Source: Escherichia phage NHEP1. Taken from it: a stretch of DNA of 64,000 nucleotides. Numbering within the stretch: the stretch's first letter is position 1; the number at the start of each line of letters is the position of its first letter. The position numbers were made by a program, and so were the translations under genes. Below are positions 10,779 through 30,100 of this stretch, piece after piece. Location of the stretch: sequence record PQ511146.1, one strand, 5' to 3'. The notes under the pieces were generated by a model. That model saw only the letters and a list, made by a program, of their open reading frames with translations. It searched no databases and was not told the DNA's origin.

Positions 10779-11120
10779 CTACTCAAGGTCTTCAGAGTCA
10801 AGCTCAAAAAGAATCAAACTGTGCATGCCTGCAGAGAGATCAACACACCCTGCAACAATAAGGGTTTGATAGTAAGGTTCAGCACCCTCAATATCTTCGT
10901 TAAAATCCACAACAAGGTAGTCACCTTTGTTAAAGGTGTATTTGTCCGATGTAAACGCAAAACCTGCCCAGTCCCCTACTGCAGGATCTTTATCAGTCAC
11001 CTTTGTTAGCAGTAGATCTTTTTCACGAGATCTTTTAGTAAAATCGTGAATCACAACATCCTTCTCTTCAGGAGTCGGATTGCCACACACGTAGTTAACG
11101 ATATTTCTCCACAAACTCAT
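10779..11120 (-). CDS. hypothetical protein
   Basis: 113 aa ORF; stop overlaps start region of next gene. Confidence 0.55.
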   Translation of the reverse strand: MSLWRNIVNYVCGNPTPEEKDVVIHDFTKRSREKDLLLTKVTDKDPAVGDWAGFAFTSDKYTFNKGDYLVVDFNEDIEGAEPYYQTLIVAGCVDLSAGMHSLILFELDSEDLE

Positions 11121-12487
11121 ACGTCCCCCTTTTCTGCTCTAGTTTCAAAATCTTTCCTGACTTTCTCGTCTAAGCCAGGGAAAGTTGTATTATAAAACTC
11201 TACGACTCTCGGGTCAACAATAATATCCACCTCTCTTAATGGACGCAACAAGTTTATTCCTTGTATCGTCTTAACCCGACTCAAGGCAACATACGTCATT
11301 CCGGGAGAGAAAGCTCCGTTCTTTCCGAGGTCTAGGTTGTAACAATCTAACGTAAGTCCTTGACTTTTATGCGATGTTACTGCGTACCCAGATTTCAAAG
11401 GAAGTTGCTCATAAGACCCGATCACAACCCTCTCTATGAACTTCTCCATCTTCCTTTCGGCAATATTGTACCTCTGGGAAGGTTTGTACTCGTTATTCTC
11501 CCACAATCTCGGCTCAATTTCAACCTGTGTCCCGTCTTCCAGCTCAACCACCACAGACTTGGTCTTGAATTTTACCACTGTGGCGCGTGTCCCGTTGACA
11601 TAGTACGGAACTTTATGTGTCGGGTCAACATCGTTTGAGGTTATCATAACCTTCATCCCTATCTTCAGCCTCATTTCCTGCTCCACAGGCAGTGTGGAGG
11701 GGAACTTACCTTTCATTTTACCAATGTAGGTCTTCTCTGGGGCCTTGATGGCATCATAGAAACGTCTGTTCACCTCCTCTGCTTGCTTATTGGTGGCACA
11801 GATGGTCAAGGCATCTGTTGGGACACCACCATGATAGCAACGAGTGTTAAGCTCTGCTACAACCTCTTTTATGCGACGACCTTCACGAACACAGTTCAAC
11901 ATTGTGGCGAAGCGAACAGATTCCTGACGGAACTGGTCTACTAATGCTATATTGTGAAGATTAAGATCCTCCCAAGATTTTGTATAGCAACACAGGTCTG
12001 TGTGGTAGAAGTTGAAGTAGGCTTCTTTCTCCATAGAAGAGACAACTGGGGGTGCTTGGTAGAAATCTCCAAACAATAGCACCTGAATGCCTCCGAAAGG
12101 TTTGTCATTTTTCCGAAGAAAGCGGAGTTTTCTATCCATCTCTATGAACTTGTCAGCACGGATCATAGAGATTTCATCGATAATTAGGATGGTAAATGCC
12201 TTGCTTTTCAGAGGCTTTGCTGTTTTTGCCCTTATTGCTGTCCAGTCTGACTCCATGCTCACACCTGCGGCAAGATCGAAAGTTCGGTGCGCTGTTGCTC
12301 CATTAACGTTTAAAGCGGCTACCCCTGTCGGGGCAACCGTTATGCAAGAGTCTCCATACATGGACTGGATCATGTTGATAAGATATGTCTTCCCGGTTCC
12401 ACCGGGTCCACTTACGAAGACATTCTCACCACTCATGATTGCAACAAGGGCAGCATCTGTGCCTACATCGTACTGCCCTTTTTCCAT
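11117..12487 (-). CDS. SF1 DNA helicase, Dda/RecD/Pif1-like
   Basis: 456 aa; Walker A GPGGTGKT, Walker B IIDEISM, C-terminal SHKSQGLT and YVALSRV motifs. Confidence 0.85.
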   Translation of the reverse strand: MEKGQYDVGTDAALVAIMSGENVFVSGPGGTGKTYLINMIQSMYGDSCITVAPTGVAALNVNGATAHRTFDLAAGVSMESDWTAIRAKTAKPLKSKAFTILIIDEISMIRADKFIEMDRKLRFLRKNDKPFGGIQVLLFGDFYQAPPVVSSMEKEAYFNFYHTDLCCYTKSWEDLNLHNIALVDQFRQESVRFATMLNCVREGRRIKEVVAELNTRCYHGGVPTDALTICATNKQAEEVNRRFYDAIKAPEKTYIGKMKGKFPSTLPVEQEMRLKIGMKVMITSNDVDPTHKVPYYVNGTRATVVKFKTKSVVVELEDGTQVEIEPRLWENNEYKPSQRYNIAERKMEKFIERVVIGSYEQLPLKSGYAVTSHKSQGLTLDCYNLDLGKNGAFSPGMTYVALSRVKTIQGINLLRPLREVDIIVDPRVVEFYNTTFPGLDEKVRKDFETRAEKGDV

Positions 12488-16621: not shown

Positions 16622-17806
16622 TCAAGCTTTAGCTAAAATGGCGCTAAACTCTTCACCAAACTCTTTTACAATCTTCATCAGGTTTGGGTATGCTTTGATC
16701 AGCTGAGCGACGATCTTGTCCCTGCCTTTACCAATAAGTAAGGCATTTCCTAAGGCGTTAGGTTTCATCATCGCCATAAAGACTGAGAATACAAAGTCTC
16801 GGTTCTCATCCTTGAAATTTTCCCAAAGGAAATCAAGGAAGTTTGCCACACAGCTGACAAGATCTTCGTCGGAGATACTTGCATTTTCCATCATATTACG
16901 AATAGCGATACAACCTTCTGACCCCAGAATCCACAAGATGTCTGGCTGCTTAGGACCTACATATTCTTTGCAGCCTCCTGCCATAATCCGACCGATTTCT
17001 GGCAAGTTTCGTTTCTTGGTGTGGTAGGTCCAAATTTCTACCGCTGCAGTGTGACCAATTGCACCTTGTAGAAGGACACGGGCCATAGCGTCAGAAATAA
17101 TACCGCTGTCAAAATCGTGCAGGATGTCAGATGCAGCAACCCAAGATCGCGGTGTGGCAAAAGATGGACAATTAATCTCAGCCATGGCCTCATAATTATC
17201 AATGGCTGATGGGACTCTTTTCAGATATCCAATTACAGAGGAGTGCACCCCATTAAGGAATGCATAGTCCTCAATAAACACCTCTGCACTGCTTGTAACT
17301 TCTACAATGATAAAGCGGTTAGCTAGAGGAGCTTCGAGCGCCGAAAGAACAGCACCGTCTGTAGCACGGTTACCTGCAGCTACAAAAACAGAGCCCTTAG
17401 GAAATGCATAGGTGCCGCACTTGTGGTCGAGCATAATTTGCATTGCAACCTTCTGCAGGTAGTTATCTGCATGAGTAAGCTCGTCTAGAAAGATAATTCC
17501 GCTCCAGTCCGGATCTGCAGGCCAAAATTCTGGAATTGCAAACACTGTACGTGTAGTCCCATCCGACTCTACAGGGATAGGTAGCCCAGATAAGTCAGCA
17601 GGGTCTTTATCTGACAGTCGCACGTCAACAAGGTTGTCATCTCGCTCACCGAACATATTATCAGCGATCTGCTTCATCACCTGACTTTTACCCACACCCA
17701 TTGGTCCCAAAATTAGGACAGATCGGCTATGACGTTGGGCAAACTGAATAATGGCTGGCAACTCACGGACAGTGATTTGACCACTTTCGAATACGTTTCT
17801 TGACAT
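16622..17806 (-). CDS. AAA+ ATPase, MoxR/CobS-like (AAA_5-type)
   Basis: 394 aa; Walker A ILGPMGVGKSQV, Walker B IIFLDELTHA. Confidence 0.75.
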   Translation of the reverse strand: MSRNVFESGQITVRELPAIIQFAQRHSRSVLILGPMGVGKSQVMKQIADNMFGERDDNLVDVRLSDKDPADLSGLPIPVESDGTTRTVFAIPEFWPADPDWSGIIFLDELTHADNYLQKVAMQIMLDHKCGTYAFPKGSVFVAAGNRATDGAVLSALEAPLANRFIIVEVTSSAEVFIEDYAFLNGVHSSVIGYLKRVPSAIDNYEAMAEINCPSFATPRSWVAASDILHDFDSGIISDAMARVLLQGAIGHTAAVEIWTYHTKKRNLPEIGRIMAGGCKEYVGPKQPDILWILGSEGCIAIRNMMENASISDEDLVSCVANFLDFLWENFKDENRDFVFSVFMAMMKPNALGNALLIGKGRDKIVAQLIKAYPNLMKIVKEFGEEFSAILAKA

Positions 17807-19123: not shown

Positions 19124-19402
19124 TTAGGCAACTGTCATTTTACATTCTTTGAATTTTAGCACAAGACGGTGATTGTGTCTAGTGTCTAAAAAGATTTTTT
19201 CAACCATCAGGCACACGGTGTAACCGTCCATCTTATTGACAACAAAATCTCCAGGGTAAGGGAGAATGTCACCTGGACTGGGGAAACATAGCCCACTCAA
19301 GAAGGCATCGTCGGTGGTGGATTTAATGGATTTCCACACACTGTCTGCCTGAATATTTTCACCCACATAATATACACTACCACATGCCTTCATCATAGTC
19401 AA
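19124..19402 (-). CDS. hypothetical protein
   Basis: 92 aa ORF. Confidence 0.5.
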   Translation of the reverse strand: MTMMKACGSVYYVGENIQADSVWKSIKSTTDDAFLSGLCFPSPGDILPYPGDFVVNKMDGYTVCLMVEKIFLDTRHNHRLVLKFKECKMTVA

Positions 19403-20298
19403 ATCTCCGCGTAAATTAAACTGGAATCAGTATACTTCTTTAGTGGGTAAATATCCTGTCCATAGATGCCGTCATTAAACACCTCATCTACCCAAAGGCT
19501 ACACTTATATCCCATCATCTCTAAAACACCCATCTCTTCTTCGGTAAACTTATCACCGCTCTTGCAAGATGTCAATACCTCATTCTGTACTCTTGCCACC
19601 TCGAAGCGGTTATTGGCAATATCGCTATTAGCGATCAAATACTCACCCAAAGGGTGTGCGGCATTAAAGATGCACAGTGGACGGTTGACGTAATAGTCTC
19701 CAGGTGTATAAAAATTATTGAGGTCTTTCACTAGAACATTCTTATCAGTCACTTCATTCATAACATCATGCATATCGCACATCTTTATATGTTTGAGGAT
19801 TCCATCCCCCATCACAAAATAAAAACTTGCTGAAACACTTTCGGCATAGATCTTACTAGATCCGTTGTAGTTGTATTTTACTCGGATGCTAACGGGGGTT
19901 TTTCCTGTCGCGTTAGCCATCATCCAAAGAAATGGCAGCTCATACTTCTCCTCTGAGGAAACAAAAGGTGAAGTTGCCAGAGATCGGAAACCTCCAGAGA
20001 AGTTGAAAGTTACAGAACCGCTCCGGCGGTATGATACTGCGTATTCCACTTTTATATCAACATATCCGTTGGAGTAAGTATGCCCTCCATTATCAAGGTA
20101 TGTCCACTTATCGGACCCAGATACCAACCTCCGCTCAATTACCTTCATCACTACAGGGATTAGCGGATTAGTACAAACCGATTTTGAAGTAGCTTTATCA
20201 TCCAAAGCCTCGTAAATTGCAGAAAGGATATCACCTGCTGAGAGATTGGTTGTGATATCTTGTTTCCACCTGGTGCTAAAACTGTTAAGATTTGCCAT
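19399..20298 (-). CDS. hypothetical protein
   Basis: 299 aa; TAGGAGCAC SD before ATG; first gene after divergent promoter. Confidence 0.6.
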   Translation of the reverse strand: MANLNSFSTRWKQDITTNLSAGDILSAIYEALDDKATSKSVCTNPLIPVVMKVIERRLVSGSDKWTYLDNGGHTYSNGYVDIKVEYAVSYRRSGSVTFNFSGGFRSLATSPFVSSEEKYELPFLWMMANATGKTPVSIRVKYNYNGSSKIYAESVSASFYFVMGDGILKHIKMCDMHDVMNEVTDKNVLVKDLNNFYTPGDYYVNRPLCIFNAAHPLGEYLIANSDIANNRFEVARVQNEVLTSCKSGDKFTEEEMGVLEMMGYKCSLWVDEVFNDGIYGQDIYPLKKYTDSSLIYAEI

Positions 20299-20338
20299 GA
20301 GTAAGTGCTCCTATGTTAGTTTTCTTTTGAATGGGTGC

Positions 20339-20367
20339 ACTATATCGTGGATTTAGAGTAAAGTCAA
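20339..20367 (-). promoter_or_regulatory. sigma70-like promoter (TTGACT-N17-TATAGT) for leftward operon
   Basis: Read on minus strand: -35 TTGACT, 17-nt spacer, -10 TATAGT. Confidence 0.6.
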
Positions 20368-20380
20368 CACGTTTTTCAGG

Positions 20381-20409
20381 TTGACATCTTCTCAGGCACT
20401 TGGTAAGAT
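20381..20409 (+). promoter_or_regulatory. sigma70-like promoter (TTGACA-N17-TAAGAT) for rightward accessory operon
   Basis: -35 TTGACA at 20381-20386, 17-nt spacer, -10 TAAGAT; 14 bp from the divergent minus-strand promoter. Confidence 0.55.
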
Positions 20410-20440
20410 TTCTCCACCCACAGAGAACAAGAGACAACTC

Positions 20441-21430
20441 ATGAATCTTGAAAAATATTATACACCAGAAGAGTTAGAGCGCTTGCTCAAAAAATACAGA
20501 CGCAAACAGAATAACGCACGGAAACGGGATATAGAGTTCAACCTGTCATGGGAAGAATATCTCCTATTTGGTAAAAAACTTTTAGGAGAGGGAGTATGCG
20601 ACTATACCCTTATACCTTTCGACATGCACACAGATGAAAACGGACTGGGAAATCCTTTCTACCCATCTCTGGAGCGGATAGATGATGAAGGTCCTTATGC
20701 GGTTGACAATTGTTGTGTGGTGGGATTGAGATGCAACTCCCTAAAGGACTGCCTGGTAGATAAAAAGACCGCAGTCTTGATTAAAGACAAAACTGATCGA
20801 AAAATTGTCCAGCAGATGATGCTCCACCTGAGCGAAGAGCGTATGGAGAAATTGAAAGGTGATTACACTTTTGAAGATTTCATCTTGCAATATGGAACGG
20901 AAGAGGATAAACTAGCACTCTTTGACGAAGAATGGGAGGAAGATATGTCACCGATGCAGGATTTTAAAAACTTCATGGCTAATCGTGGAGCCAACAAGCA
21001 CATTTCTGACATTGTAAACGAGCCTGTAGTAGAGGAGATTGGAGAGATGACGCAACAGGCTTACGAAGAGGAAAAAGAGCCTCAAGTGGTCGAAGAAGAG
21101 CTTACAGAAGAGGTTCCTGCACTGCCTGACGATGTTGAGATTGCCAAAGCTTACACTTTCTATTGCCAGACGTTCTACGATGCAGGTATGAAAGTTGATC
21201 TGTCATTCAGCCAGTTTAAGAGCACATACATTCGAAAATGTTGTGCTTTAACTGGTGAACGTCTCGGTGCCGGACTTAAACCCCTATTAGTTACCGACTG
21301 GAACAAAGGTTTCACCAAAGGTAACTTCATGGTAGTATCTCCAATCATGGAGAAGGCTATGACAGACCTTATGAAGACCACTCGCATGACAATGACCGAG
21401 TTGGCTGGTATTTTCAAGCACGTTAAATAA
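20441..21430 (+). CDS. hypothetical acidic protein with two related Cys-containing segments
   Basis: Track ORF starts at TTG inside the promoter -35; first ATG is 20441; acidic linker EEEKEPQVVEEELTEEVP. Confidence 0.55.
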   Translation: MNLEKYYTPEELERLLKKYRRKQNNARKRDIEFNLSWEEYLLFGKKLLGEGVCDYTLIPFDMHTDENGLGNPFYPSLERIDDEGPYAVDNCCVVGLRCNSLKDCLVDKKTAVLIKDKTDRKIVQQMMLHLSEERMEKLKGDYTFEDFILQYGTEEDKLALFDEEWEEDMSPMQDFKNFMANRGANKHISDIVNEPVVEEIGEMTQQAYEEEKEPQVVEEELTEEVPALPDDVEIAKAYTFYCQTFYDAGMKVDLSFSQFKSTYIRKCCALTGERLGAGLKPLLVTDWNKGFTKGNFMVVSPIMEKAMTDLMKTTRMTMTELAGIFKHVK

Positions 21431-21435
21431 TGACA

Positions 21436-21450
21436 GGGGCCATTGGCCCC
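21436..21450 (+). other. intergenic hairpin GGGGCC-ATT-GGCCCC (possible weak terminator/attenuator)
   Basis: Perfect 6-bp GC stem between stop at 21430 and next start; weak U-tract. Confidence 0.4.
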
Positions 21451-21463
21451 TTCTGGAGTTTTA

Positions 21464-22924
21464 ATGGATAGCAGAAGTTCAGAAATCATTACCGCACAAA
21501 AAGATGATGCCTTGCGAATGCTGCAGGCCGCTCGCATGTACCTTCTTGAAAAGCTGCCGTTTTATGGCACACTGTTGTCAGGGTTGCAGTTCGTAGAAAA
21601 CCACACATGGTGCTCCACTATGGCAACAGACCATAAACGCATCTACTACAGCCCTGAGTTCATTATGGGGTTGGCAGATGAGCGTAAAACCATTCTTAAA
21701 GCATCTCTGACTGACAAGCAGTTTGAGATGGCTGAAGTTTTCTATTCCCCAAAATCTGTGAAAGAGGTGGCCTTTCTTCTGTCACATGAGGTGGGGCATA
21801 TTATCTGTGATCATCTGGTCCGTGGTAAAAGCTTTGAGCCGGAACTGTTCAATATTGCTTGTGATCACGTTATCAACACAGGTCTTGTGGTTGACTTTAG
21901 CAAGCCTCCTTGTGTTTTCTTCCCGAAGGGGAAAAGCACTGAGTTCGTAAAAGGTAAGCCTTTTGGCTTCTTAGCTAATTGCTACTGCGACATGAAGTTT
22001 CATGGATGGATTGCGGAGAACGTCTATGCAGTTCTTGATAAACAAAGAGATCAGAATGGCGGTAAAAGTAAGAACGGTAAAGGTGAGAACTCCCAAGGAG
22101 ATAAACGACAAACCGATGATCACATGAGCGGGAACGGTGGCACTAGTGATGATCTTGGAAAGGCTATGGGGTATGATCAGCCGCAACCAGTAATCAGTCA
22201 ATCGGATAAAGATCAGGCCATGCAGGACTCTGGTGACATGTTGGAAGCAGCAATGCAAGCTTCAGGAGGTCGTTGCCCCGAGGCGGTGCGCGAGTTTGTC
22301 AAAAACAGAGGCAAGCCTGTAATCAATTATATAGATATTATTAAGCAACGTATGTTATCTAAAAGAAAGGCTGAGTTAACCTACAGAAAACCTGGTCGCC
22401 GATCTGGGTCTTTGACCACCACAATGCGAAAAGTTGGAGCTATAAACAAGAATCAACACGTTATTGTTCCTGGTCGTAATCCGGAAAACACTATAGATAT
22501 TGTAGTGGCTTTAGACGTTTCTGGGTCGATCTCACAAAGAACTTTAAAGAAAATGTTCAATGAGATCACCGGGTTGTGCAATTTGTATAAAGAGTTTAAG
22601 GTTACGATGTTCTGTTGGTCAACCGAGGTTGGAGAGGTTAAAGTATACACTCGCGGTAACATCGATGAGATGATCAACTATGAGGTCCACTCAACATGGG
22701 GCACAACAGCCGCCTGCGTGTTCGAGTATCTTGATGCTAACATACCGAATGCAAAAGATGTCATCGTCCTTACCGACCTCTACTTTGAGCATAACTTTGA
22801 ACAAAAGGCTGTTGACAACAAGTGGAAAAAGTACGATACTTTATGGGTTCTCACCGAAGGGTATAATAAAAATTATATCCCGAGCTTTGGGAAAACTGTG
22901 GAATTAATCGAGTACGCTAAGTAA
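21464..22924 (+). CDS. metallopeptidase-like (HExxH) + von Willebrand factor A domain protein
   Basis: 486 aa; LLSHEVGHIICDH motif; C-terminal MIDAS-like VALDVSGSIS; track TTG start replaced by ATG after GGAG SD. Confidence 0.7.
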   Translation: MDSRSSEIITAQKDDALRMLQAARMYLLEKLPFYGTLLSGLQFVENHTWCSTMATDHKRIYYSPEFIMGLADERKTILKASLTDKQFEMAEVFYSPKSVKEVAFLLSHEVGHIICDHLVRGKSFEPELFNIACDHVINTGLVVDFSKPPCVFFPKGKSTEFVKGKPFGFLANCYCDMKFHGWIAENVYAVLDKQRDQNGGKSKNGKGENSQGDKRQTDDHMSGNGGTSDDLGKAMGYDQPQPVISQSDKDQAMQDSGDMLEAAMQASGGRCPEAVREFVKNRGKPVINYIDIIKQRMLSKRKAELTYRKPGRRSGSLTTTMRKVGAINKNQHVIVPGRNPENTIDIVVALDVSGSISQRTLKKMFNEITGLCNLYKEFKVTMFCWSTEVGEVKVYTRGNIDEMINYEVHSTWGTTAACVFEYLDANIPNAKDVIVLTDLYFEHNFEQKAVDNKWKKYDTLWVLTEGYNKNYIPSFGKTVELIEYAK

Positions 22925-22939
22925 GAGAGGATGGTATTT

Positions 22940-23197
22940 ATGGCAACAGAGGTAGTAATTAAAGCTGAACGCCCAGTTAAAAAAGCTATCAACACGTTCC
23001 CTGTAGGAACCATTGTGAGCATGATTACAGAGTCAGGCCGTGTATCTACACTGCTAATCGTGAAATCTGCATGCTCATCTTGTGTGTGGGCATACGATCT
23101 TGACGAGAAAGAACTGAAAGATTTTGTCGGGGAGCTGAAAGCAACAGAGCTTGACGCTCGTATCGAAGTATTTGGTGAAACTATGAAGGAAGAGTAA
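22940..23197 (+). CDS. hypothetical protein
   Basis: 85 aa; second ATG chosen for SD spacing. Confidence 0.5.
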   Translation: MATEVVIKAERPVKKAINTFPVGTIVSMITESGRVSTLLIVKSACSSCVWAYDLDEKELKDFVGELKATELDARIEVFGETMKEE

Positions 23198-23460
23198 TGA
23201 CTACAAAAATCACTATTGCAGAACCGAAAGCTAACACGCAACCTATCGAAAAGTTTAAATGCGGCGAGGTGGTAACATTTACACCAGATAATGAAGATGC
23301 TAAGATTTTTGCCATGGTAACAGCCGAGTGGATGTGTGACAATACCACACAGGTGCTGCGTTTTGACACCTATCTTACAGATGAAATCAGGAACGACAAG
23401 ATCGTGACTGGTGTGGATACTGAGATCATTTTCTACAAGAGCTTTTTAGAGGGTTTCTGA
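23197..23460 (+). CDS. hypothetical protein
   Basis: 87 aa; start overlaps upstream stop. Confidence 0.5.
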   Translation: MTTKITIAEPKANTQPIEKFKCGEVVTFTPDNEDAKIFAMVTAEWMCDNTTQVLRFDTYLTDEIRNDKIVTGVDTEIIFYKSFLEGF

Positions 23461-23461
23461 T

Positions 23462-23695
23462 ATGGCAAAAATTCGTAAATTATCCAGCAATCAGGTTGTG
23501 AAAGACTTTGAATCTGGAGAGATTCTGTATGTTCGTGATGCAGATGATGAAGGTGAAGATCTTGTTATGCTGGTAGGGCACGCTGAAGACGGATGCATCC
23601 AGGCTGTTTTTCTTGAAACAGCTGTGGTACACTGGATAGAGCTGGACCTGAAAGCACGAAAACCTAAAGCAGAAATCATTATTTACGAAGATTGA
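23462..23695 (+). CDS. hypothetical protein
   Basis: 77 aa. Confidence 0.5.
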   Translation: MAKIRKLSSNQVVKDFESGEILYVRDADDEGEDLVMLVGHAEDGCIQAVFLETAVVHWIELDLKARKPKAEIIIYED

Positions 23696-23711
23696 CAAAA
23701 AGGAGAGAGCC

Positions 23712-24161
23712 GTGTTGAGCAAACGTGAATGCGACAGCATTAGTCTGAATTCCTATAAGAAACAATGGTTTGGGGTAGAAGTTTGCCGACTGCGGCTAGG
23801 CTCCTACTTGAACTTCGTCTATTATGAGAGTGACAGCCGTATCGTCTCTTATGAAGTGTTCTACACTAAGAATACATTCGAGCTGAGACGTAAGGTGGAT
23901 GGCGGGAGATCTACCGCCCAGAATAATTGGGAAACTATTCTACCTCCAGATGTTATAGGAAGCCCCCTGAATGTATCTGAAGATGAAAATCTTATGGTTC
24001 ATGCTATGATGGGACTTGACAGCTTAGAGCTGGCGATCTATGATATGTCTATCGAAGCAGTTAAGCTGGACTACATCGAAAACACTTTAGAGGAAGGTAT
24101 CAAGAAGTTTCTCGGTGAGAAATTGAAAGCCCACTTTCATAAGGAGCTATATCTGTTATGA
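23712..24161 (+). CDS. hypothetical protein
   Basis: 149 aa; GTG start after AAAGGAGAGAG SD. Confidence 0.5.
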   Translation: MLSKRECDSISLNSYKKQWFGVEVCRLRLGSYLNFVYYESDSRIVSYEVFYTKNTFELRRKVDGGRSTAQNNWETILPPDVIGSPLNVSEDENLMVHAMMGLDSLELAIYDMSIEAVKLDYIENTLEEGIKKFLGEKLKAHFHKELYLL

Positions 24162-24403
24162 AGACCCGTAAAGAACGTAACAAGATTTTACCTGGCGCTC
24201 TCGAACACATGATGAAGTGCAGATCTATCTGGCACTCTGCCAAGGAGGGGCAGCATGTGGTCGTGGTTAGTGATAATGCCAACCCATTCGGTGATTATGT
24301 CACCATGATGACTCCATACATCCGCGACGGTGTTGTGGAAGTGGTTCCTTATAACGGTCTGCATGAGAGGCATTTTGAGAGCACTTTGCTAGTGGAGCTA
24401 TAA
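24158..24403 (+). CDS. hypothetical protein
   Basis: 81 aa; ATGA stop/start overlap. Confidence 0.5.
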   Translation: MKTRKERNKILPGALEHMMKCRSIWHSAKEGQHVVVVSDNANPFGDYVTMMTPYIRDGVVEVVPYNGLHERHFESTLLVEL

Positions 24404-24405
24404 TC

Positions 24406-24972
24406 ATGGCGGTCAATGTGGCTTACAACACAGGAAAGCTTGACAGAGACATTGGGTGTCTTGTCCTTTCAGATACAGAGGAGTATTGGGGTTATGGGTT
24501 GCTGTCAGACCCACACCCGAGCAACCTTGTATCAACAGTGCTATATCGCTACGACCCTGTACCAACGGTACACGACAAAGACATTCACGACCTTCGGATC
24601 AAGTGTCTGGAAGATCTTCTGAACAATGGCTGCAACGATCTGCGGGTAGCCAAGGAGAAGCTTACAAACATTCACAAAGAGGAAGTGATGAGCACCCTCA
24701 GTAAGAGATCAGTGCACAAAAAGATGATGCTGAACTTTGCAATGGGTATCTACATGGATGGGTATAAGGGAGGGGATCCGATCCTCAAGCTTCGCTGCCC
24801 AACACTGTGGGAAAGAGTGGTTGACAGTAAGGACGGTACTGCCCTGCTAGAACTCCACACTGCAGGTTGGATTTGGCGGTATGTAGACGGATACCCTCTG
24901 TGGGCATGTGGGCCCGGTGAGTTTGTTGACAGACCTAGCGCGGTAGTGGATTTGCTATTGCAGTTTGAATAA
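24406..24972 (+). CDS. hypothetical protein
   Basis: 188 aa; GGAG SD upstream. Confidence 0.55.
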   Translation: MAVNVAYNTGKLDRDIGCLVLSDTEEYWGYGLLSDPHPSNLVSTVLYRYDPVPTVHDKDIHDLRIKCLEDLLNNGCNDLRVAKEKLTNIHKEEVMSTLSKRSVHKKMMLNFAMGIYMDGYKGGDPILKLRCPTLWERVVDSKDGTALLELHTAGWIWRYVDGYPLWACGPGEFVDRPSAVVDLLLQFE

Positions 24973-25028
24973 AAGGTGAGTTATAAAGCATTCATACACC
25001 TATCAACAATACAACAAGAGAGACTGAG

Positions 25029-25304
25029 ATGACGAAAGAAGAAGCTGACGTATTAGACTTTGCACTAGAGGCTACGCAAGAGGCTCTAGTGTTAGCTTGG
25101 AAAATGAACCAACGTGCTGCAGAATGCAACCGCCGAATCAATGAGATCCTGGGTATGTCTATGTATGATTTCACCATGCATGCTGGAGAGATTCCTGAAT
25201 TAACTGCTGAGATGAATGATCTTGACAATAAAATTAATATCATTCTGAAGACAGCAGAAACAACTCACCAAACCGCCCGTAAATTTATCAACGAGAAGGT
25301 GTGA
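25029..25304 (+). CDS. hypothetical protein (predicted helical)
   Basis: 91 aa. Confidence 0.5.
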   Translation: MTKEEADVLDFALEATQEALVLAWKMNQRAAECNRRINEILGMSMYDFTMHAGEIPELTAEMNDLDNKINIILKTAETTHQTARKFINEKV

Positions 25305-25306
25305 AT

Positions 25307-25780
25307 ATGGACTACAGCTACTGCGGAGAAGAAGTACCTTTTAACTACAGCAATCTCGCCACGAGTAATCCATATGAGACTCGTCACGGCACACACATCA
25401 TTGCTATTGACTTTGATGGAACGTTTAATGCGAGCCCTTTCATCTTCTCCCGCCTTATTAAGGACCTGAAGAAGGAAGGGTGGACAGTCTATCTTGTGAC
25501 TTTCCGATTCATCACTCAAGACAACGTGGACATCGAATACTGGCGCAAGGAGTTAGATGTTGGAGTGTTTTATACTGGAGGCGTTCAGAAGGCCGCTTAT
25601 CTGGCGCAGTTTGATATCTACCCAGACATCTGGGTTGATGATTCTCCAGCTTGCATTCCGGCTAAGAATCAGTTAGAGTTTGCAATGAAGGAGATTGAGT
25701 ATAAGTCTGACGCTAAGCGTAACGGATGGCCCTTTATTATTGAAGATTACCCAGATCCTGAACCGGAGAAAGAACCATGA
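25307..25780 (+). CDS. HAD-superfamily hydrolase-like protein (putative phosphatase/nucleotidase)
   Basis: Motif I IAIDFDGT (DxDGT) near N-terminus, acidic WVDDSP motif near C-terminus; ATG 25307 after GAAGGTG. Confidence 0.5.
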   Translation: MDYSYCGEEVPFNYSNLATSNPYETRHGTHIIAIDFDGTFNASPFIFSRLIKDLKKEGWTVYLVTFRFITQDNVDIEYWRKELDVGVFYTGGVQKAAYLAQFDIYPDIWVDDSPACIPAKNQLEFAMKEIEYKSDAKRNGWPFIIEDYPDPEPEKEP

Positions 25781-25947
25781 AACGAAGATACCATTACGTG
25801 ATGTGGAAGTTATATCATGGTGCTGCTAAGGCTTATCGAGCCGTGTTTGGTAATGACAATCACTGCATTATGTTACACCTTACATCCATTGAGCATCACA
25901 ATGAGTGGATTCGTGCAATCGTAATAGGTGACAAAGACTTTAAGTAA
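25777..25947 (+). CDS. small hypothetical protein (56 aa), not in ORF track
   Basis: ATGA overlap with preceding stop; translation MKRRYHYVMWKLYHGAAKAYRAVFG... ends TAA at 25945-25947. Confidence 0.4.
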   Translation: MKRRYHYVMWKLYHGAAKAYRAVFGNDNHCIMLHLTSIEHHNEWIRAIVIGDKDFK

Positions 25948-25977
25948 AGTATGGCTTTCGAGATGGAGACTGACTAA

Positions 25978-26361
25978 ATGTGCAAGTGTAAATCTTATAA
26001 TTGGAAAGTGAAAGGTGCCAAGCATCCAAATGTTATCGTTGATGTGCCTAAAAAGCTCCGTGACGGCAAAAAACGTGTGTGCCTTGATAAGTGCATGGCT
26101 AAACCTATCATGAGCCTATGGGCGGCAGGATTGAAGACCTTAAACTGCTGCTGTGGTCATAACAAACGCCCACCAAGCATTATCATACCGGAGAATGCAG
26201 ATCCTAAAGCATATGCCAAGATACTGACCCGCTACTACAGCACCTTCTTGATTGGAAAATGGTGCCACGATGAACTCCAGTGGTGGATAGCGTATGGCGG
26301 TCTTGGTGCTGCTTTAGGTTTCCCAGCTTTATCAGATAAATCTGTCAAGGTATCGTCGTAA
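25978..26361 (+). CDS. Cys-rich hypothetical protein (possible zinc-binding)
   Basis: 127 aa; CKCK...C...C...CCCGHNKRP cysteine clusters. Confidence 0.5.
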   Translation: MCKCKSYNWKVKGAKHPNVIVDVPKKLRDGKKRVCLDKCMAKPIMSLWAAGLKTLNCCCGHNKRPPSIIIPENADPKAYAKILTRYYSTFLIGKWCHDELQWWIAYGGLGAALGFPALSDKSVKVSS

Positions 26362-26370
26362 CCTATTTTA

Positions 26371-26388
26371 AGGCCTCAAACGAGGCCT
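26371..26388 (+). other. hairpin AGGCCUC-AAAC-GAGGCCU after 25978..26361 (possible terminator)
   Basis: Perfect 7-bp stem right after stop; no strong U-tract. Confidence 0.35.
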
Positions 26389-26465
26389 ATGCCTTCATAA
26401 ACTACCTGCCTCTGTGTGATTACCCTTCTAAATAAAATACCCTCTCAAATTGCTTAAAATTAAGC

Positions 26466-26494
26466 TTGACATCAACACCAGATTTATATATGAT
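26466..26494 (+). promoter_or_regulatory. sigma70-like promoter (TTGACA-N17-TATGAT)
   Basis: -35 TTGACA 26466-26471, 17-nt spacer, -10 TATGAT 26489-26494; about 30 nt upstream of SD/ATG at 26525. Confidence 0.55.
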
Positions 26495-26524
26495 TATCTC
26501 ATCAACCAAGCAGAGGAGATTGTC

Positions 26525-26932
26525 ATGGATAATCTTGCGAGTGTGAACGTCGAAATTGTTAAACTAAAGTTCTTGGGCTTTCGAGACCCTAATTCTCTAA
26601 CAGCTATACTGATGGATACCCACTTCACACCTGGGAAAGAGTACACTGCCTTCCGTTATATTTGTGGAGATCACGAATCGGCCTATAGTGTGAATACAAA
26701 CCTCGGCGAGGGATATTTCATCAAAGATATCACAGATCACTTGTGGGGTATGTGGGAATTGGTGGAAGAAGAGAATAAATCCCTTCCCAAAGAGATTTGG
26801 GTGCACACCTTCCACACAGGTAAGTTCGGAGGTACGGAACATAAGTCTATCCACTATGAAGAAGAAAGTGCCATCAAACAACAAGCTGTGCTTGGTGGAT
26901 CTGTAGAAAAATTTGTTAAATGCGAGGACTGA
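26525..26932 (+). CDS. hypothetical protein
   Basis: Track ORF 26450..26932 overlaps the promoter; ATG at 26525 preceded by AGAGGAGA SD. Confidence 0.55.
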   Translation: MDNLASVNVEIVKLKFLGFRDPNSLTAILMDTHFTPGKEYTAFRYICGDHESAYSVNTNLGEGYFIKDITDHLWGMWELVEEENKSLPKEIWVHTFHTGKFGGTEHKSIHYEEESAIKQQAVLGGSVEKFVKCED

Positions 26933-26935
26933 GAA

Positions 26936-27136
26936 ATGGCTGATTTTTGTAAAGATTGCTCTGAAGAGTTGTTTGGCTTTGACTGCAAAGATTTGGAAGG
27001 TCTGATCACTGAGGATCAGTGGAAGGAAGGCTATGCAGCACCTGTTATTTGTGAAGGTTGTGGCTATACCTATGTTGACCATAAAGGTAAGCGCGTCAAG
27101 CCGTCTGAAGATGGGGCATGTTGGGAGTATTACTAA
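26936..27136 (+). CDS. small zinc-ribbon-like protein
   Basis: 66 aa; CxxC...CxxC (FCKDC ... CEGCG). Confidence 0.5.
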   Translation: MADFCKDCSEELFGFDCKDLEGLITEDQWKEGYAAPVICEGCGYTYVDHKGKRVKPSEDGACWEYY

Positions 27137-27145
27137 CTATAAAAA

Positions 27146-27172
27146 GAAAGGGGCCATTTGGCCCCTTTTTTA
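27146..27172. terminator. bidirectional rho-independent terminator between convergent transcription units
   Basis: AAAAAGAAAGGGGCC-AUUU-GGCCCCUUUUUU: 6-bp GC stem flanked by A-run and U-run. Confidence 0.75.
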
Positions 27173-27183
27173 TCTACTACTTG

Positions 27184-30100
27184 TTAAAGAGAGAAAGTCG
27201 CGTAGGCTCCCAGACGATACTGCTGATCACCAGGGAACATAACACCTATAGAGGCTGTCCCTAGAATCCTGCCTTCCTTTCCAGACTCCATTCTGAACCC
27301 TACCCATCCGGAACTCCTTGCAGCCTCGATGTTGTCGCTATACCCAAAAGTGGCAAGCTCGTCAACACCAGCTCCAAACAGCAACTGAAGCTGACTTCTC
27401 GGAAGCCCTATAATTTCAGGAATATATGCACCAAAGTACACCATCTGCCCTACCTTAGGACCGCTGCCGTACTCCATCGGCTTGCTTGTAGAGAAAGTCT
27501 TCATACCAGAAGTCCCTGCCGGATTAGGGTATGCCCCGTTTGTTGCTGTGCCTATCCACATTCTCCACTGAGGTGCCATCTGTCTGACAGTGAAAGATGT
27601 TGAAGACGTTTTGCGGCCTGCATCATCCGTAACTACAAACTTTATAGTGACATTACCAGGGGCTTTAAATGTTACCAATCCTGTGGTAGCATCCACTGTT
27701 GCAATGTTAGTATTACTACTTTCCCAAGTCTTTCTAATCCCTGGCACATTGGAAGGGGTAATAGAAGGTTCCTGCATCTGCAGTTTACCGCCCACAATCC
27801 CTATGCCGTTACCTGGATTATACAACGCACCAACTTCATCTACAATGTTACCTGCCTTGAGGCTGTACTTTTTAGAGAAGTTGTAAGTGCCGTTATATGC
27901 GTGTGTCCCTGAGAAGGTTACATCTGCCTTGCCGTTGGAGATGCAAACCAAAGCATACTTCCTGTCAGGCAACTGTGCCCCAGTTTCTGGGTGAGTTTTA
28001 CCCACCTGGAACACGCTCGGGTCAGTAGAGTCGTGGCTATCACTAACAGAGCTTGGACCACCCATCAACTGTGACAAGCAATTCCTTACCCATGTCCAGT
28101 TATTGTCACTGGAGAAGTCTACAGTCAAATCAAACACAACCCACTCATTTGGCTTCCACACAGGTGTTGTGATCAACTTACCAACACCCCCACCCTGAAG
28201 AGTAGGAGATTGTTCAGTGATCAGGGCAGAGTATGCCAGAGTGCCCAACTGCATAGTCTGGCTTGCTGTCCTCACTACCTTAGAATCAGCATCTGTGAAG
28301 TTGTTGATGATCTGGAATGTGCCATAAGTGTTTTTACAGGTAATTCTGGCGTTCAGTGTGTCAATCTTCCTCACATCTGCCATAGCAGTGTTAGACACAG
28401 AGAAGTCAGAAGCTTTAGCTGAGTTTGCTGCAACAGCCGGATCAACGTTGAGGGTTGCGTTGAACTGGCAGGCAGGAGTAACCAGCAGCTTGTTATCACC
28501 TATTTGCTTCCATGAAACACTTTGAACAGGGAGATTCCATTTAATACCTGAGAAAACTTTAGCAACCCTTGGTCCCAGAGCTCCCGTCCTGTTGTCTTTA
28601 CAGCACATGGACATAGTGATCGTTGACGGGGTGGCCTGACCAAACAATTGTTGTGCTTTTGCAGAGGACATGGTGTAGAAATTGTCCTTAACAAACTCAT
28701 CAGCCGCTAACGATCCGTCAGATCTCCACCATTGCACCTGGTACCCAGTCTTATCCCAGCCACCGACCTGCTTTAAGTCCTCCCAAGAGATTTCCAAATC
28801 TCCGGTGGTAGGGTTAATTGCCGCAGTTCCTGGTGTTCCAGATGACCATATTGGGATATCGAACCACGCTGGTTTAACAGACTGCACTGCGTTAGGTCCT
28901 ATTGCAGCAGCAAGTTGTTGACCCATCAATACGCGAGCATCTTTCACCAGACCCCACTCAATCATAGACCCAGAGTAACCCTCTTTCTTATATGCGGATG
29001 ACCCATTCAAGTGAATAAGTCTACTTGTGCCGAAGTTATGTGCTCCACCGCCGTTGTCGTCTGCAAAATTGGTTATGATTCTATCCCTGATGTTTTTCCA
29101 TGCCCTGCCCCCAATCTCGTAGTCATGGTCATAACATCTTTGCAGCGTTGTCCAGCAAATGATCGCCATCCTTCTGCCGTTACTGAAGCCAAAAGCCTGA
29201 TCGTTAAGCTCTCTCCACAAATAGCAGTTAGTGGTCCACATAGCTCTGTGAATGTTGAACCAGTTTATAGACTTGGCTGAGTTATCCCACTGAGTCCCAG
29301 GTAATTCAGGCCACACTGCATTAACCAGCATGTCTTCTGTTCCTGCATCAACCAAGAACCCTCTTACCTTTTTACCCATGCCTACCCTGTCTTTTGCAAT
29401 CCAACTGCCAAACAATCTCAGTTTTGGACCGTAAACAACATCTTCCGGATGCTCAAAAGAGACATACTTCAGATATACTGTAGGGTCACCATAGGTGCCA
29501 TCACAAACAGCTTTGTGCATGTTCTCGCCAAGGTCTAGACGAAGTCCTGTTACAACTTTTGACGTGTCGGTGAATTTGTCTGTTAAATCAAATTCATACC
29601 ACCACCAACCTGCACCCAACAATACCTTCTTACAACGCTGCGCATCTGTATCAGATATTCTCTTATCTCCTGAAAAAGGTGAGTCAGCAAACTGATAGTG
29701 CAGAGCAATTTCAAAAGGATGTGTGGAGGTCCCGTTTTCTGCAAGGACTTGTTTACCTATTAAGTCACACTTAATAATCATCACAACACGTTTGTACCCA
29801 TTTGTTACTGGGATCTGCATAGACATAGATGTCCCGTCCATGTTTGATCTCAGCGCAGTCATGATGATATAAGGATCAACGGCATTACCAAGAGTTTCAG
29901 GCCCTGGAATTATCTTATACTTCTTAACCTGCCCCATGATGTAATCACTGGCGTAAGTTGCAGCCTCGAAGCAAGATCCCCCGTTAGGCAGTTCCCCTGG
30001 CCCCCAGAAAAATGCGCCATAACAGTTATAAAACCACTTGTTAGGGTCGTATTTGTTCTTGAAGGTCTGAACCTCGTTGGCCTGTTTTGTCAAGAAAACC

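Follow-up and report, generated by a model that had tools for sequence, protein, structure and literature searches.

We analyzed a block of plus-strand genes at 20441 to 27136 in a 64,000-nucleotide stretch of Escherichia phage NHEP1 (sequence record PQ511146.1); the whole stretch is called the window here. An earlier note on this DNA, made from its letters alone, had described the block as an early or accessory island of small genes in the usual setting of host-shutoff and anti-defense factors. The DNA is that of an rV5-like Vequintavirus, and the block corresponds to "genes 11-26," one of the four transcription units into which Kropinski et al. (2013; PMC3606486) split rV5. It lies at the same site as the rV5 unit and as bas54_0042 to bas54_0056 of phage Bas54 (MaxBurger), between a minus-strand early block and the lateral tail fiber gene, and it matches them in its divergent promoters, its bidirectional terminator, and the order of its genes. 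The proteins are also the same, at 89 to 100% identity for most; the differences from these units are allelic only. The region from 20300 to 27300 is 98.1% identical to Escherichia phage S127 BCL3 and matches 120 phage records, nearly all from rV5-like Escherichia coli myoviruses of the genus Vequintavirus. Of the 120 records, 113 cover the block to at least 80%, and only the slots of the third and thirteenth genes vary, so calling the block "accessory," if this means variable, is incorrect within the genus. Two minus-strand regions flank the island. The upstream one encodes an AAA+ ("MoxR") ATPase, a cell wall hydrolase, and rIIA/rIIB, and the downstream one has the convergent gene for a 1,877-residue Ig-like lateral tail fiber protein.

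The block contains 14 plus-strand open reading frames (ORFs), numbered G1 to G14 here, each of which has its counterpart in the annotation deposited for close relatives. The GC skew changes sign over exactly this block, from about -0.12 to about +0.15, and a Shine-Dalgarno-like purine run precedes nearly all 14 genes. Against three Vequintaviruses at 7 to 8% DNA divergence, the ratio of nonsynonymous to synonymous change (pN/pS) was 0.01 to 0.19 for all 14 genes. Because synonymous change far exceeds nonsynonymous change, all of them, including the 56-residue G11, are real genes under purifying selection. The ORFs, the annotation of relatives, the GC skew, the ribosome-binding runs, and the pN/pS values together bear out the earlier description of 14 mostly small, tightly packed genes on one strand. 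The ATGA coupling that had been claimed for them is present at the G6/G7 and G10/G11 junctions but not elsewhere: G3 and G4 are joined by TAATG, and the remaining intergenic gaps comprise four of 1 to 3 nucleotides and others of 15, 16, 30, 33, 56, and 163 nucleotides.

Within the genus, the island proteins are 89 to 100% identical (79 to 100% for G11), except those in the G3 and G13 slots. When we searched loci fetched from other Vequintavirinae genera by tblastn, only G1, G2, and G10 were matched in Seunavirus and Mydovirus and only G2 was matched further away; the other 11 genes had no detectable homolog in these loci. Scans of the island proteins and DNA against NCBIfam, PADLOC, and Rfam gave no relevant match. 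Sixteen records named "Campylobacter phage," with Campylobacter jejuni as the stated host, are about 92 to 93% identical to the island, and the accessions of those listed are of the form MG0656xx. Such identity across such different hosts is implausible and suggests mislabeling or contamination.

The promoter and the bidirectional terminator that the earlier note had placed at the ends of the block both stood up to comparison among relatives. A sigma-70-type promoter (P1; 20381 to 20409, plus strand) with the form TTGACA-17-TAAGAT and an extended TG drives G1 onward; its -35 hexamer is the consensus, and its -10 hexamer matches at 4 of 6 positions. The hexamers and their spacing are fixed in seven of seven Vequintaviruses while the spacer sequence varies, and TTGACA-17-GATAAT precedes the G1 homolog in Seunavirus 4MG and Mydovirus AV124, where the surrounding DNA cannot be aligned. 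We take P1 to be a working promoter because its hexamers and spacing are kept while the spacer and surroundings drift. A divergent sigma-70-type promoter, TTGACT-17-TATAGT (20339 to 20367, minus strand), serves the minus-strand block with the ATPase and is likewise kept in seven of seven Vequintaviruses; bidirectional promoters in the gap from gene 10 to gene 11 have been described in rV5 (PMC3606486). A second plus-strand sigma-70-type promoter (P2; 26466 to 26494), with the near-consensus form TTGACA-17-TATGAT, lies upstream of G13 in the 163-nucleotide gap and is found as the strict pattern in four of six relatives. The promoter layout indicates that the island probably consists of two transcription units, with G13 and G14 set apart.

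The island is closed by a bidirectional intrinsic terminator (27147 to 27168), AAAGGGGCC-ATTT-GGCCCCTTT, which is common to the island and the convergent tail fiber gene. It has a 9-bp G+C-rich stem (free energy [ΔG], -19.7 kcal/mol) with T-runs in both directions, and the stem is invariant and the loop variable among relatives; in rV5, a terminator has been placed between genes 26 and 27 (PMC3606486). A second G+C-rich hairpin, AGGGGCC-ATT-GGCCCCT (21435 to 21451, plus strand), lies between G1 and G2. Its stem is 7 bp long with a ΔG of -14 kcal/mol and no adjacent T-run, the strict GGGGCC..GGCCCC pattern occurs in six of seven relatives, and the loop is ATT or AAT. This hairpin is possibly an attenuator or an RNA-stabilizing or processing element. 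In the window, hairpins of the form GGGGCC...GGCCCC occur only here and at the operon terminator.

The late-type motif of rV5, TGGTAAAATA, has 17 matches in the window when one mismatch is allowed, against 5.7 ± 2.3 expected. Fifteen of the 17 are on the minus strand, and 11 of these fall between about 30.8 and 62.3 kb, a distribution that fits a phage-specific class of late promoters upstream of structural genes. Within the island, the only match is an imperfect one that falls in the coding sequence of G1; the intergenic regions have none. The island thus carries what is expected of an early class, a host sigma-70-type promoter and no late-type promoter motif, and it is most likely expressed early, ahead of the late structural genes. 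We call the island early from the type of its promoters and from the absence of the late-type motif.

The first gene, G1 (20441 to 21430, plus strand), encodes a 329-residue homolog of T4 Srd and is the ortholog of rV5 gp11 and bas54_0056. The earlier note had found recognizable motifs in only three genes; the HExxH and vWA motifs of G2, the DFDGT motif of G10, and the Cys-rich character of G12 and G14 are present, but the relationship of G1 to Srd had been overlooked. A link between rV5 gp11 and Srd by PSI-BLAST was already reported in PMC3606486. By BLASTP, G1 residues 8 to 143 align with residues 4 to 133 of T4 Srd (NP_049634) at an E value of 8e-08, with 24% identity over about 135 residues, and G1 residues 253 to 299 align with Srd residues 30 to 80 at an E value of 5e-04. 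G1 also matches PHROGs 4592 (2.7e-12), 1400 (9.6e-10), 3322, and 1035, with values of about 1e-10 to 1e-13; the labels carried by these groups are Srd, sigma-70 decoy, and, for phrog_1035, endonuclease VII-like. G1 had no sequence match in Pfam, NCBIfam, or the PDB, and its pN/pS is 0.07. Its homologs are confined, at tblastn sensitivity, to Vequintavirinae-like myoviruses of enterobacteria, Aeromonas, and Vibrio.

G1 and Srd have in common the motif SLER(I/F)D...N...(K/R), and G1 looks as if it is built on a degenerate HNH-like module. In both proteins, this module has no histidine at what we take to be the position where HNH domains place the catalytic one. We would not expect nuclease activity of G1, since the module appears to have lost its catalytic histidine. 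A second copy of the module is possible at about residues 253 to 299, after an acidic linker. The evidence for this duplication is that both halves of G1 align with one part of Srd; a direct comparison of the N- and C-terminal regions of G1 was not significant (E = 4). G1 does not have the full-length architecture of Srd, of which only residues 4 to 133 or so align. Compared with the 248-residue T4 protein, G1 is 81 residues longer and has the acidic linker and a probable second module copy, with nothing that matches the C-terminal half of Srd. G1 is therefore Srd-like as judged by sequence comparison and not a Srd ortholog. The database label "anti-termination protein" for G1 was dropped as unsupported or contradicted.

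The second gene, G2 (21464 to 22924, plus strand), is the ortholog of bas54_0055 and encodes a 486-residue, N4 gp25-like protein with a DUF2201_N zinc metallopeptidase domain (PF13203; 1e-28) and a vWA-like DUF2201 domain (PF09967; 3.5e-11), both above the Pfam cutoff. The peptidase residues are H108, E109, and H112 of HEVGH (108 to 112), together with H117, and the metal ion-dependent adhesion site (MIDAS) of the vWA domain consists of D351-x-S353-G354-S355, T414, and D438. All of these residues are invariant in an alignment of seven divergent homologs that spans Vequintavirinae, RaK2, and an N4-like phage, and this conservation indicates that the peptidase and the MIDAS should both be active. 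Homologs of G2 are present in 625 phage records, among them those of N4-like podoviruses, RaK2-like jumbo phages, and phage G. The label "HNH endonuclease" given to phrog_1314 and copied into many GenBank records for this protein is an annotation error, given its clear peptidase and vWA Pfam domains. A preprint on phage proteases that activate CBASS (PMC12991175) concerns the prohead protease and not G2.

The predicted partner of G2 is the AAA+ ATPase encoded outside the island at 16622 to 17806 on the minus strand, 3.6 kb upstream of G2. This 394-residue protein is the ortholog of bas54_0063 (99% identity). Proteins of the G2 type usually have a cognate AAA+ ATPase gene next to their own; here, such a gene is present in the same genome. 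In CR3 (Certrevirus), LTH01, ECBP1, and RaK2, an AAA+ ATPase gene lies directly upstream of the G2 homolog on the same strand, and the window ATPase is homologous to those of CR3 (35% identity; 1.6e-78), RaK2 (1e-31), ECBP1 (2e-18), and LTH01 as well. The RaK2 annotation calls its ATPase N4 gp24-like and its G2 homolog gp25-like. Because the homologous genes are adjacent and codirectional in these four phages, the ATPase and G2 form a conserved pair across very different phages. The name "MoxR" for the ATPase comes from depositors and from the HIDEN-SEQ study described below; its matches in the PDB and NCBIfam cover only the P-loop region of Clp-type ATPases. Single-sequence searches of the PDB with G1, G2, and G10 gave nothing useful.

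Experimental data on the orthologs come from the HIDEN-SEQ preprint (10.1101/2025.11.20.689424), in which Bas54 was mapped with a saturated transposon library. By tblastn, G1 to G12 and G14 correspond one to one to bas54_0056 to bas54_0045 and bas54_0042, at 89 to 100% identity. All genes from bas54_0042 to bas54_0056 were nonessential on K-12, with 79 to 100% of TA sites hit, and bas54_0043, in the G13 slot, was the sole island gene with "reduced fitness" on this host. The ATPase gene bas54_0063 and bas54_0140 were required against DS-28, a predicted two-gene DefenseFinder system of the uropathogenic strain CFE311, and knockouts confirmed both requirements. In the resampling comparison of K-12 with CFE311, bas54_0063 had a log2 fold change (log2FC) of -7.23, and the G2 ortholog bas54_0055 had a log2FC of -2.20 (P = 0.0009; adjusted P = 0.009). 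The G6 ortholog had a log2FC of -2.28 that was not significant (adjusted P = 0.195), and the other island genes were near zero or slightly positive. The depletion of bas54_0055 is a number from the supplement, and the gene is not mentioned in the HIDEN-SEQ paper. In sheets S6 and S7 of Extended Data Table 8, the sheet named "resampling_K-12_vs_CFE303" has a CFE311 command line and values identical to those of the next sheet. We read both sheets as giving the CFE311 comparison, in agreement with the main text; the CFE303 table is apparently missing from the stored supplement.

These results argue against an assembly role for G2 that is essential on K-12, since its ortholog is dispensable on that host. 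They also suggest that G2 shares the anti-defense activity of the ATPase, because it is depleted together with its conserved partner in the host that carries DS-28. The smaller effect of G2 could mean that it is helpful but not strictly required or that some insertions leave its function intact. From this codepletion, we infer that G2 acts as the adaptor and protease of the ATPase on a defense protein. A DNA helicase gene in the minus-strand block of the ATPase, bas54_0068, had a log2FC of -6.32 (adjusted P = 0) in CFE311; it is nonessential on K-12 and was not discussed by the authors. Its counterpart in the window is the minus-strand ORF at 11117 to 12487, matched by position and length only (456 residues in both).

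The tenth gene, G10 (25307 to 25780, plus strand), encodes a 157-residue HAD superfamily phosphatase of the minimal type, with no cap insertion in the structural model. The four HAD motifs are D35-F-D37-G-T39, T65, K95, and D111-D112; in 41 family members, D35, D37, and K95 never vary, and each of T39, T65, D111, and D112 is kept in 90% or more. A second alignment gave the same picture. A word-indexed search returned only four homologous proteins, so an exhaustive search was needed, and phmmer run exhaustively gave 557 cluster representatives at E values of 1e-3 or better, mostly of 90 to 140 residues. G10 had no Pfam or NCBIfam match, and none of the 41 relatives matched a HAD family. By these sequence comparisons, the proteins form a separate, uncurated family within the HAD superfamily that is absent from Pfam. 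An AlphaFold2 model built from a 22-sequence alignment had a predicted local distance difference test (pLDDT) score above 90 for core residues 30 to 115 and showed the Rossmann-like HAD core fold. The closest folds included the 3'-phosphatase domain of T4 Pnk and a putative 5'(3')-deoxyribonucleotidase. Motifs and model agree in making G10 a minimal HAD phosphatase, and its candidate substrates would be polynucleotide 3'-phosphate ends or nucleotides. Fusions were seen in two relatives, one with a cREC_REC "cyclic-phosphate processing receiver" domain (2.7e-20) and one with a P-loop NTPase. These single cases hint at nucleic acid end processing or repair, and we have not built on them.

Two genes encode Cys-rich proteins. 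G12 (25978 to 26361, plus strand; 127 residues) has a Cys/His-rich N-terminal domain in which C2, C4, H16, C39, C57 to C59, and H61 are conserved, and it probably binds a metal, likely zinc. Its N-terminal 78 residues recur at 52% identity in a Vibrio N4-like phage and, more weakly, in Caulobacter jumbo phages. A homolog search gave 11 close relatives only, and the AlphaFold2 model (pLDDT, 55) returned noise in Foldseek (best E = 0.95), with no PDB profile match. The depositor label "methyltransferase TYW3" was neither confirmed nor refuted, and we have not adopted it. G14 (26936 to 27136, plus strand; 66 residues; phrog_2210; ortholog of bas54_0042) has two CxxC pairs, C5-x2-C8 and C39-x2-C42 (CKDC and CEGC), and is a probable zinc-binding protein of the zinc ribbon type, although no family model matched it. 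Homologs occur in 835 phage records, with 56 to 72% identity in the FelixO1-like, T5-like, and phiSUSP1-like records listed. This identity is unusually high for a tiny protein across unrelated families of virulent enterobacterial phages. The G14 homolog lies inside a tRNA gene cluster in a T5-like phage and beside a putative phosphatase gene in a FelixO1-like phage. The label "alpha-aminoadipate carrier protein" for G14 was dropped as unsupported or contradicted.

The remaining genes (G3 to G9, G11, and G13) had PHROG matches only, all to groups without a function or with an unsupported label, and those scanned had nothing in Pfam, NCBIfam, or PADLOC. G3 (22940 to 23197, plus strand; 85 residues; phrog_10698) is the first of a tandem set of small paralogs and occupies a variable slot, with one copy here and two in B9-1 and MaxTheCat that are 38 to 41% identical to each other and to G3. 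It is followed by its distant paralog G4 (23197 to 23460, plus strand; 87 residues; phrog_12861) and by the acidic G5 (23462 to 23695, plus strand; 77 residues; phrog_12046), a possible third paralog. A profile hidden Markov model of the G3-slot alleles matched G4 at an E value of 3.6e-06 and G5 at a borderline 0.013; an all-against-all BLAST did not detect this paralogy. On the strength of the profile, G3 and G4 belong to a tandem paralog family with a fast-changing first member, and the membership of G5 is marginal. The pattern at the G3 slot fits either diversifying selection or cassette exchange. The label "excinuclease ATPase subunit" for a G3-slot gene was dropped as unsupported or contradicted.

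G6 (23712 to 24161, plus strand; 149 residues; phrog_6790) starts with GTG and had no Pfam, NCBIfam, or PADLOC match; its label "tail protein" finds no support in the proteomic or essentiality data consulted. It overlaps G7 (24158 to 24403, plus strand; 81 residues; phrog_4868), which is followed by the genus-restricted and very strongly conserved G8 (24406 to 24972, plus strand; 188 residues; phrog_12232; pN/pS, 0.02; no family match). G9 (25029 to 25304, plus strand; 91 residues; phrog_12604; pN/pS, 0.01) had only weak, subthreshold Pfam matches to a spectrin repeat and an alanine zipper. G11 (25777 to 25947, plus strand; 56 residues; phrog_12006; pN/pS, 0.19), which overlaps G10, is the least conserved of the island proteins that are present in all relatives. 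G13 (26525 to 26932, plus strand; 135 residues) is modular, and its N- and C-terminal halves match different PHROGs, which suggests modular shuffling. Its slot is variable: Bas54 has two different small genes there (bas54_0043 and bas54_0044), and only G13 residues 13 to 82 match, at 51% identity. Directly upstream of the island, the minus-strand gene at 19399 to 20298 is widely labeled "putative alpha 1-3 fucosyltransferase." It had no Pfam match at E values of 0.1 or better and matched only a PHROG without a function, and the label looks unsupported.

Our interpretation, to which we give a probability of roughly 0.6, is that the rV5 "genes 11-26" unit combines a Srd-like protein (G1), a partner (G2) of the anti-defense ATPase encoded outside the unit, the HAD phosphatase G10, and genes with host-specific tasks. 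Host-specific tasks are suggested because the orthologs are dispensable on K-12 and yet are kept by purifying selection; for G3 to G5, G12, G14, and the remaining genes, a role in host interaction would follow from context only. Host sigma-70 RNA polymerase would read the island from P1, with P2 serving G13 and G14, and transcription would end at the terminator shared with the tail fiber gene. According to a passage in PMC13232886 that cites Qi et al. (2015), T4 Srd attaches to the N-terminal half of RNase E and promotes the decay of host RNAs; Srd had first been postulated to be a sigma-70/sigma-S decoy. The most likely role of G1 is to redirect gene expression in the host by binding one of its macromolecules, RNase E being the target of T4 Srd. 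G2 most likely serves the ATPase as substrate adaptor and protease: the vWA MIDAS would hold a target, the ATPase would remodel it, and the peptidase domain of G2 would cut it.

Several observations weigh against this interpretation. The G1 ortholog had no phenotype on K-12 or CFE311 (log2FC, -0.08), and G1 is just 24% identical to Srd, with a different architecture. Early expression is unproven; we found no Vequintavirus transcriptome in the literature. Models place the ATPase in AAA+, but those that would assign it to the MoxR clade were below threshold (AAA_5, 0.0065; bpMoxR, 0.0096). The effect of G2 is far weaker than that of the ATPase (-2.2 versus -7.2), comes from a comparison of whole strains rather than from cloned DS-28, and was not followed up by the authors. 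Twelve of the orthologs had no significant effect in CFE311, the sole defense-rich host tested, and Vequintavirinae are reported to be exceptionally susceptible to restriction-modification systems (PMC8594841), which argues against an effective antirestriction factor in the island. Nine genes have no functional evidence, and 11 of the 14 have none for host shutoff or anti-defense. The part of the earlier note that placed the island in a host-shutoff and anti-defense context therefore has support for two of the 14 genes, each tied to host takeover or anti-defense by homology or by experiment: G1 through its likeness to Srd and G2 through its depletion, with its anti-defense ATPase partner, in the DS-28 host. 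For the 11 genes just mentioned, the evidence speaks neither for nor against it.

Pairs of this type have been seen differently. Iyer et al. (2021; PMC7824862) described a MoxR-vWA chaperone-cochaperone pair with an N-terminal metallopeptidase in group 2.2 jumbo phages and proposed that it functions in virion assembly and processing, by analogy with a MoxR-vWA pair needed for tail assembly in Acidianus two-tailed virus. Applied here, G2 and the ATPase would help to build the virion (the tail or tail fibers, for example) as a morphogenesis chaperone and processing protease, and the island would be late or an assembly accessory. The island does abut the lateral tail fiber gene, and phrog_6790 (G6) carries the label "tail protein." Yet both Bas54 orthologs were hit at 94% of TA sites and are nonessential on K-12, whereas true structural genes are essential in the same map, and the MoxR knockout still plaques on K-12, its defect being specific to DS-28. 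The main text of the rV5 paper names no island product as a virion protein, and the island has a sigma-70-type promoter and intergenic regions free of the late-type motif. We consider an assembly role quite improbable. Somewhat less improbable, though still unlikely in our judgment, is that the island is an ordinary accessory set for nucleotide metabolism or replication, with a HAD nucleotidase or end-processing phosphatase, an AAA+/vWA chaperone of the CbbQ/NorQ type for metal insertion or enzyme activation, and small zinc-binding proteins, none of which would have to do with shutoff or defense. MoxR-vWA pairs elsewhere activate enzymes, and the nearest folds of G10 are in keeping with such a set. 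The location of the ATPase/G2 pair near dCTP deaminase and thymidylate synthase genes in ECBP1 and RaK2 also counts against our interpretation, since housekeeping fits it equally well.

The metabolic explanation meets its own difficulties. The earlier note had set homology to ordinary conserved replication accessory proteins as the finding that would speak against its suggestion, and no such homology was found for any of the 14 proteins in Pfam, NCBIfam, or PHROGs; nor does any match a family of replication or nucleotide metabolism there beyond generic labels. All of the genes are dispensable on K-12, the phenotype of the ATPase is defense specific, and G1 is homologous to a host takeover protein. 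Unlike core metabolic genes, 11 of the genes lack a detectable homolog in the loci fetched from other Vequintavirinae genera. It would also be conceivable that G1, and G2 with it, are HNH homing endonucleases and the small ORFs selfish or decaying passengers, so that the island would be made of mobile element remnants. The label "HNH endonuclease" on phrog_3118 (the G1 family) and phrog_1314 (the G2 family), a name copied in several records, and the match of G1 to phrog_1035 point in this direction. However, G2 is a metallopeptidase with a vWA domain, and the SLER(I/F)D module of G1 and Srd lacks a histidine at the place where we take the catalytic one to lie. The island is syntenic, its proteins are highly identical apart from the G3 and G13 slots, and its pN/pS values are low; neither sporadic homing elements nor pseudogenes would show such a pattern. 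We give this last explanation very little credence.

The block itself was already known, having been mapped in rV5 in 2013, and the dispensability of its orthologs was shown in 2025. What we add is the link between the activity of the Bas54 MoxR protein against DS-28, the pairing of MoxR with a peptidase-vWA protein in jumbo phages, and the depletion of the G2 ortholog in the DS-28 host. The resulting hypothesis, in which G2 supplies an anti-defense ATPase with its adaptor and protease functions, is testable. A broader and more tentative proposal, which we think possible but doubtful, is that G2 and the ATPase together make up a targeting protease of two parts, powered by ATP, that destroys or disables components of host immunity, DS-28 at least. 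The module, whose catalytic residues are invariant in N4-like podoviruses, RaK2-like jumbo phages, and all Vequintavirinae sampled, would then represent a widespread and so far unrecognized class of enzymatic anti-defense systems rather than an assembly chaperone. As a still weaker extension, the G3 to G5 paralogs and the G13 slot might take part in this arms race as decoys or as determinants of specificity. Confirmation of the hypothesis on G2 would give a function to a common form of phage "dark matter," a pair found in hundreds of phages from unrelated groups, and it would be relevant to the choice and engineering of therapeutic coliphages. The other genes make up a short and clearly delimited set, conserved, nonessential, and under selection, and are suited to toxicity and anti-defense screens.

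Set beside known systems, the pair formed by the ATPase and G2 is closest to the N4 gp24/gp25-like pair, with which it shares the same two proteins and the same invariant HExxH and MIDAS residues. The arrangement differs: in N4-like phages, RaK2, and Certrevirus, the two genes are adjacent, whereas in Vequintavirus, Seunavirus, and Mydovirus they are about 3.6 kb apart and divergent. For pairs of this type, the proposal in the literature is virion assembly, whereas the sole experimental phenotype, that of Bas54, is anti-defense. The cellular MoxR-vWA systems RavA-ViaA, CbbQ-CbbO, and NorQ-NorD likewise combine an AAA+ ATPase with a MIDAS-bearing vWA adaptor; unlike G2, their vWA partners are not known to carry a fused metallopeptidase. 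G10 resembles the minimal HAD phosphatases, among them T4 Pnk (1ltq and 5uj0), the KDN-9-P and KDO-8-P phosphatases, and the uncharacterized 2pr7 and 2obb, but it is missed by the curated HAD models, has a core of only about 95 residues, and has no kinase domain.

The setting of G1 recalls that of T4 srd, which stands among early host takeover genes such as modA and modB; G1 is the first gene after a sigma-70-type promoter. More widely, the early regions of T4 and T5's pre-early genes consist, like the island, of tightly packed small genes behind host-type promoters. Most of these T4 and T5 genes are dispensable in laboratory hosts, as are the orthologs of the island genes on K-12, and some of them act on host functions. 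The island differs from these clusters in that its content is highly conserved within the genus and not mosaic.

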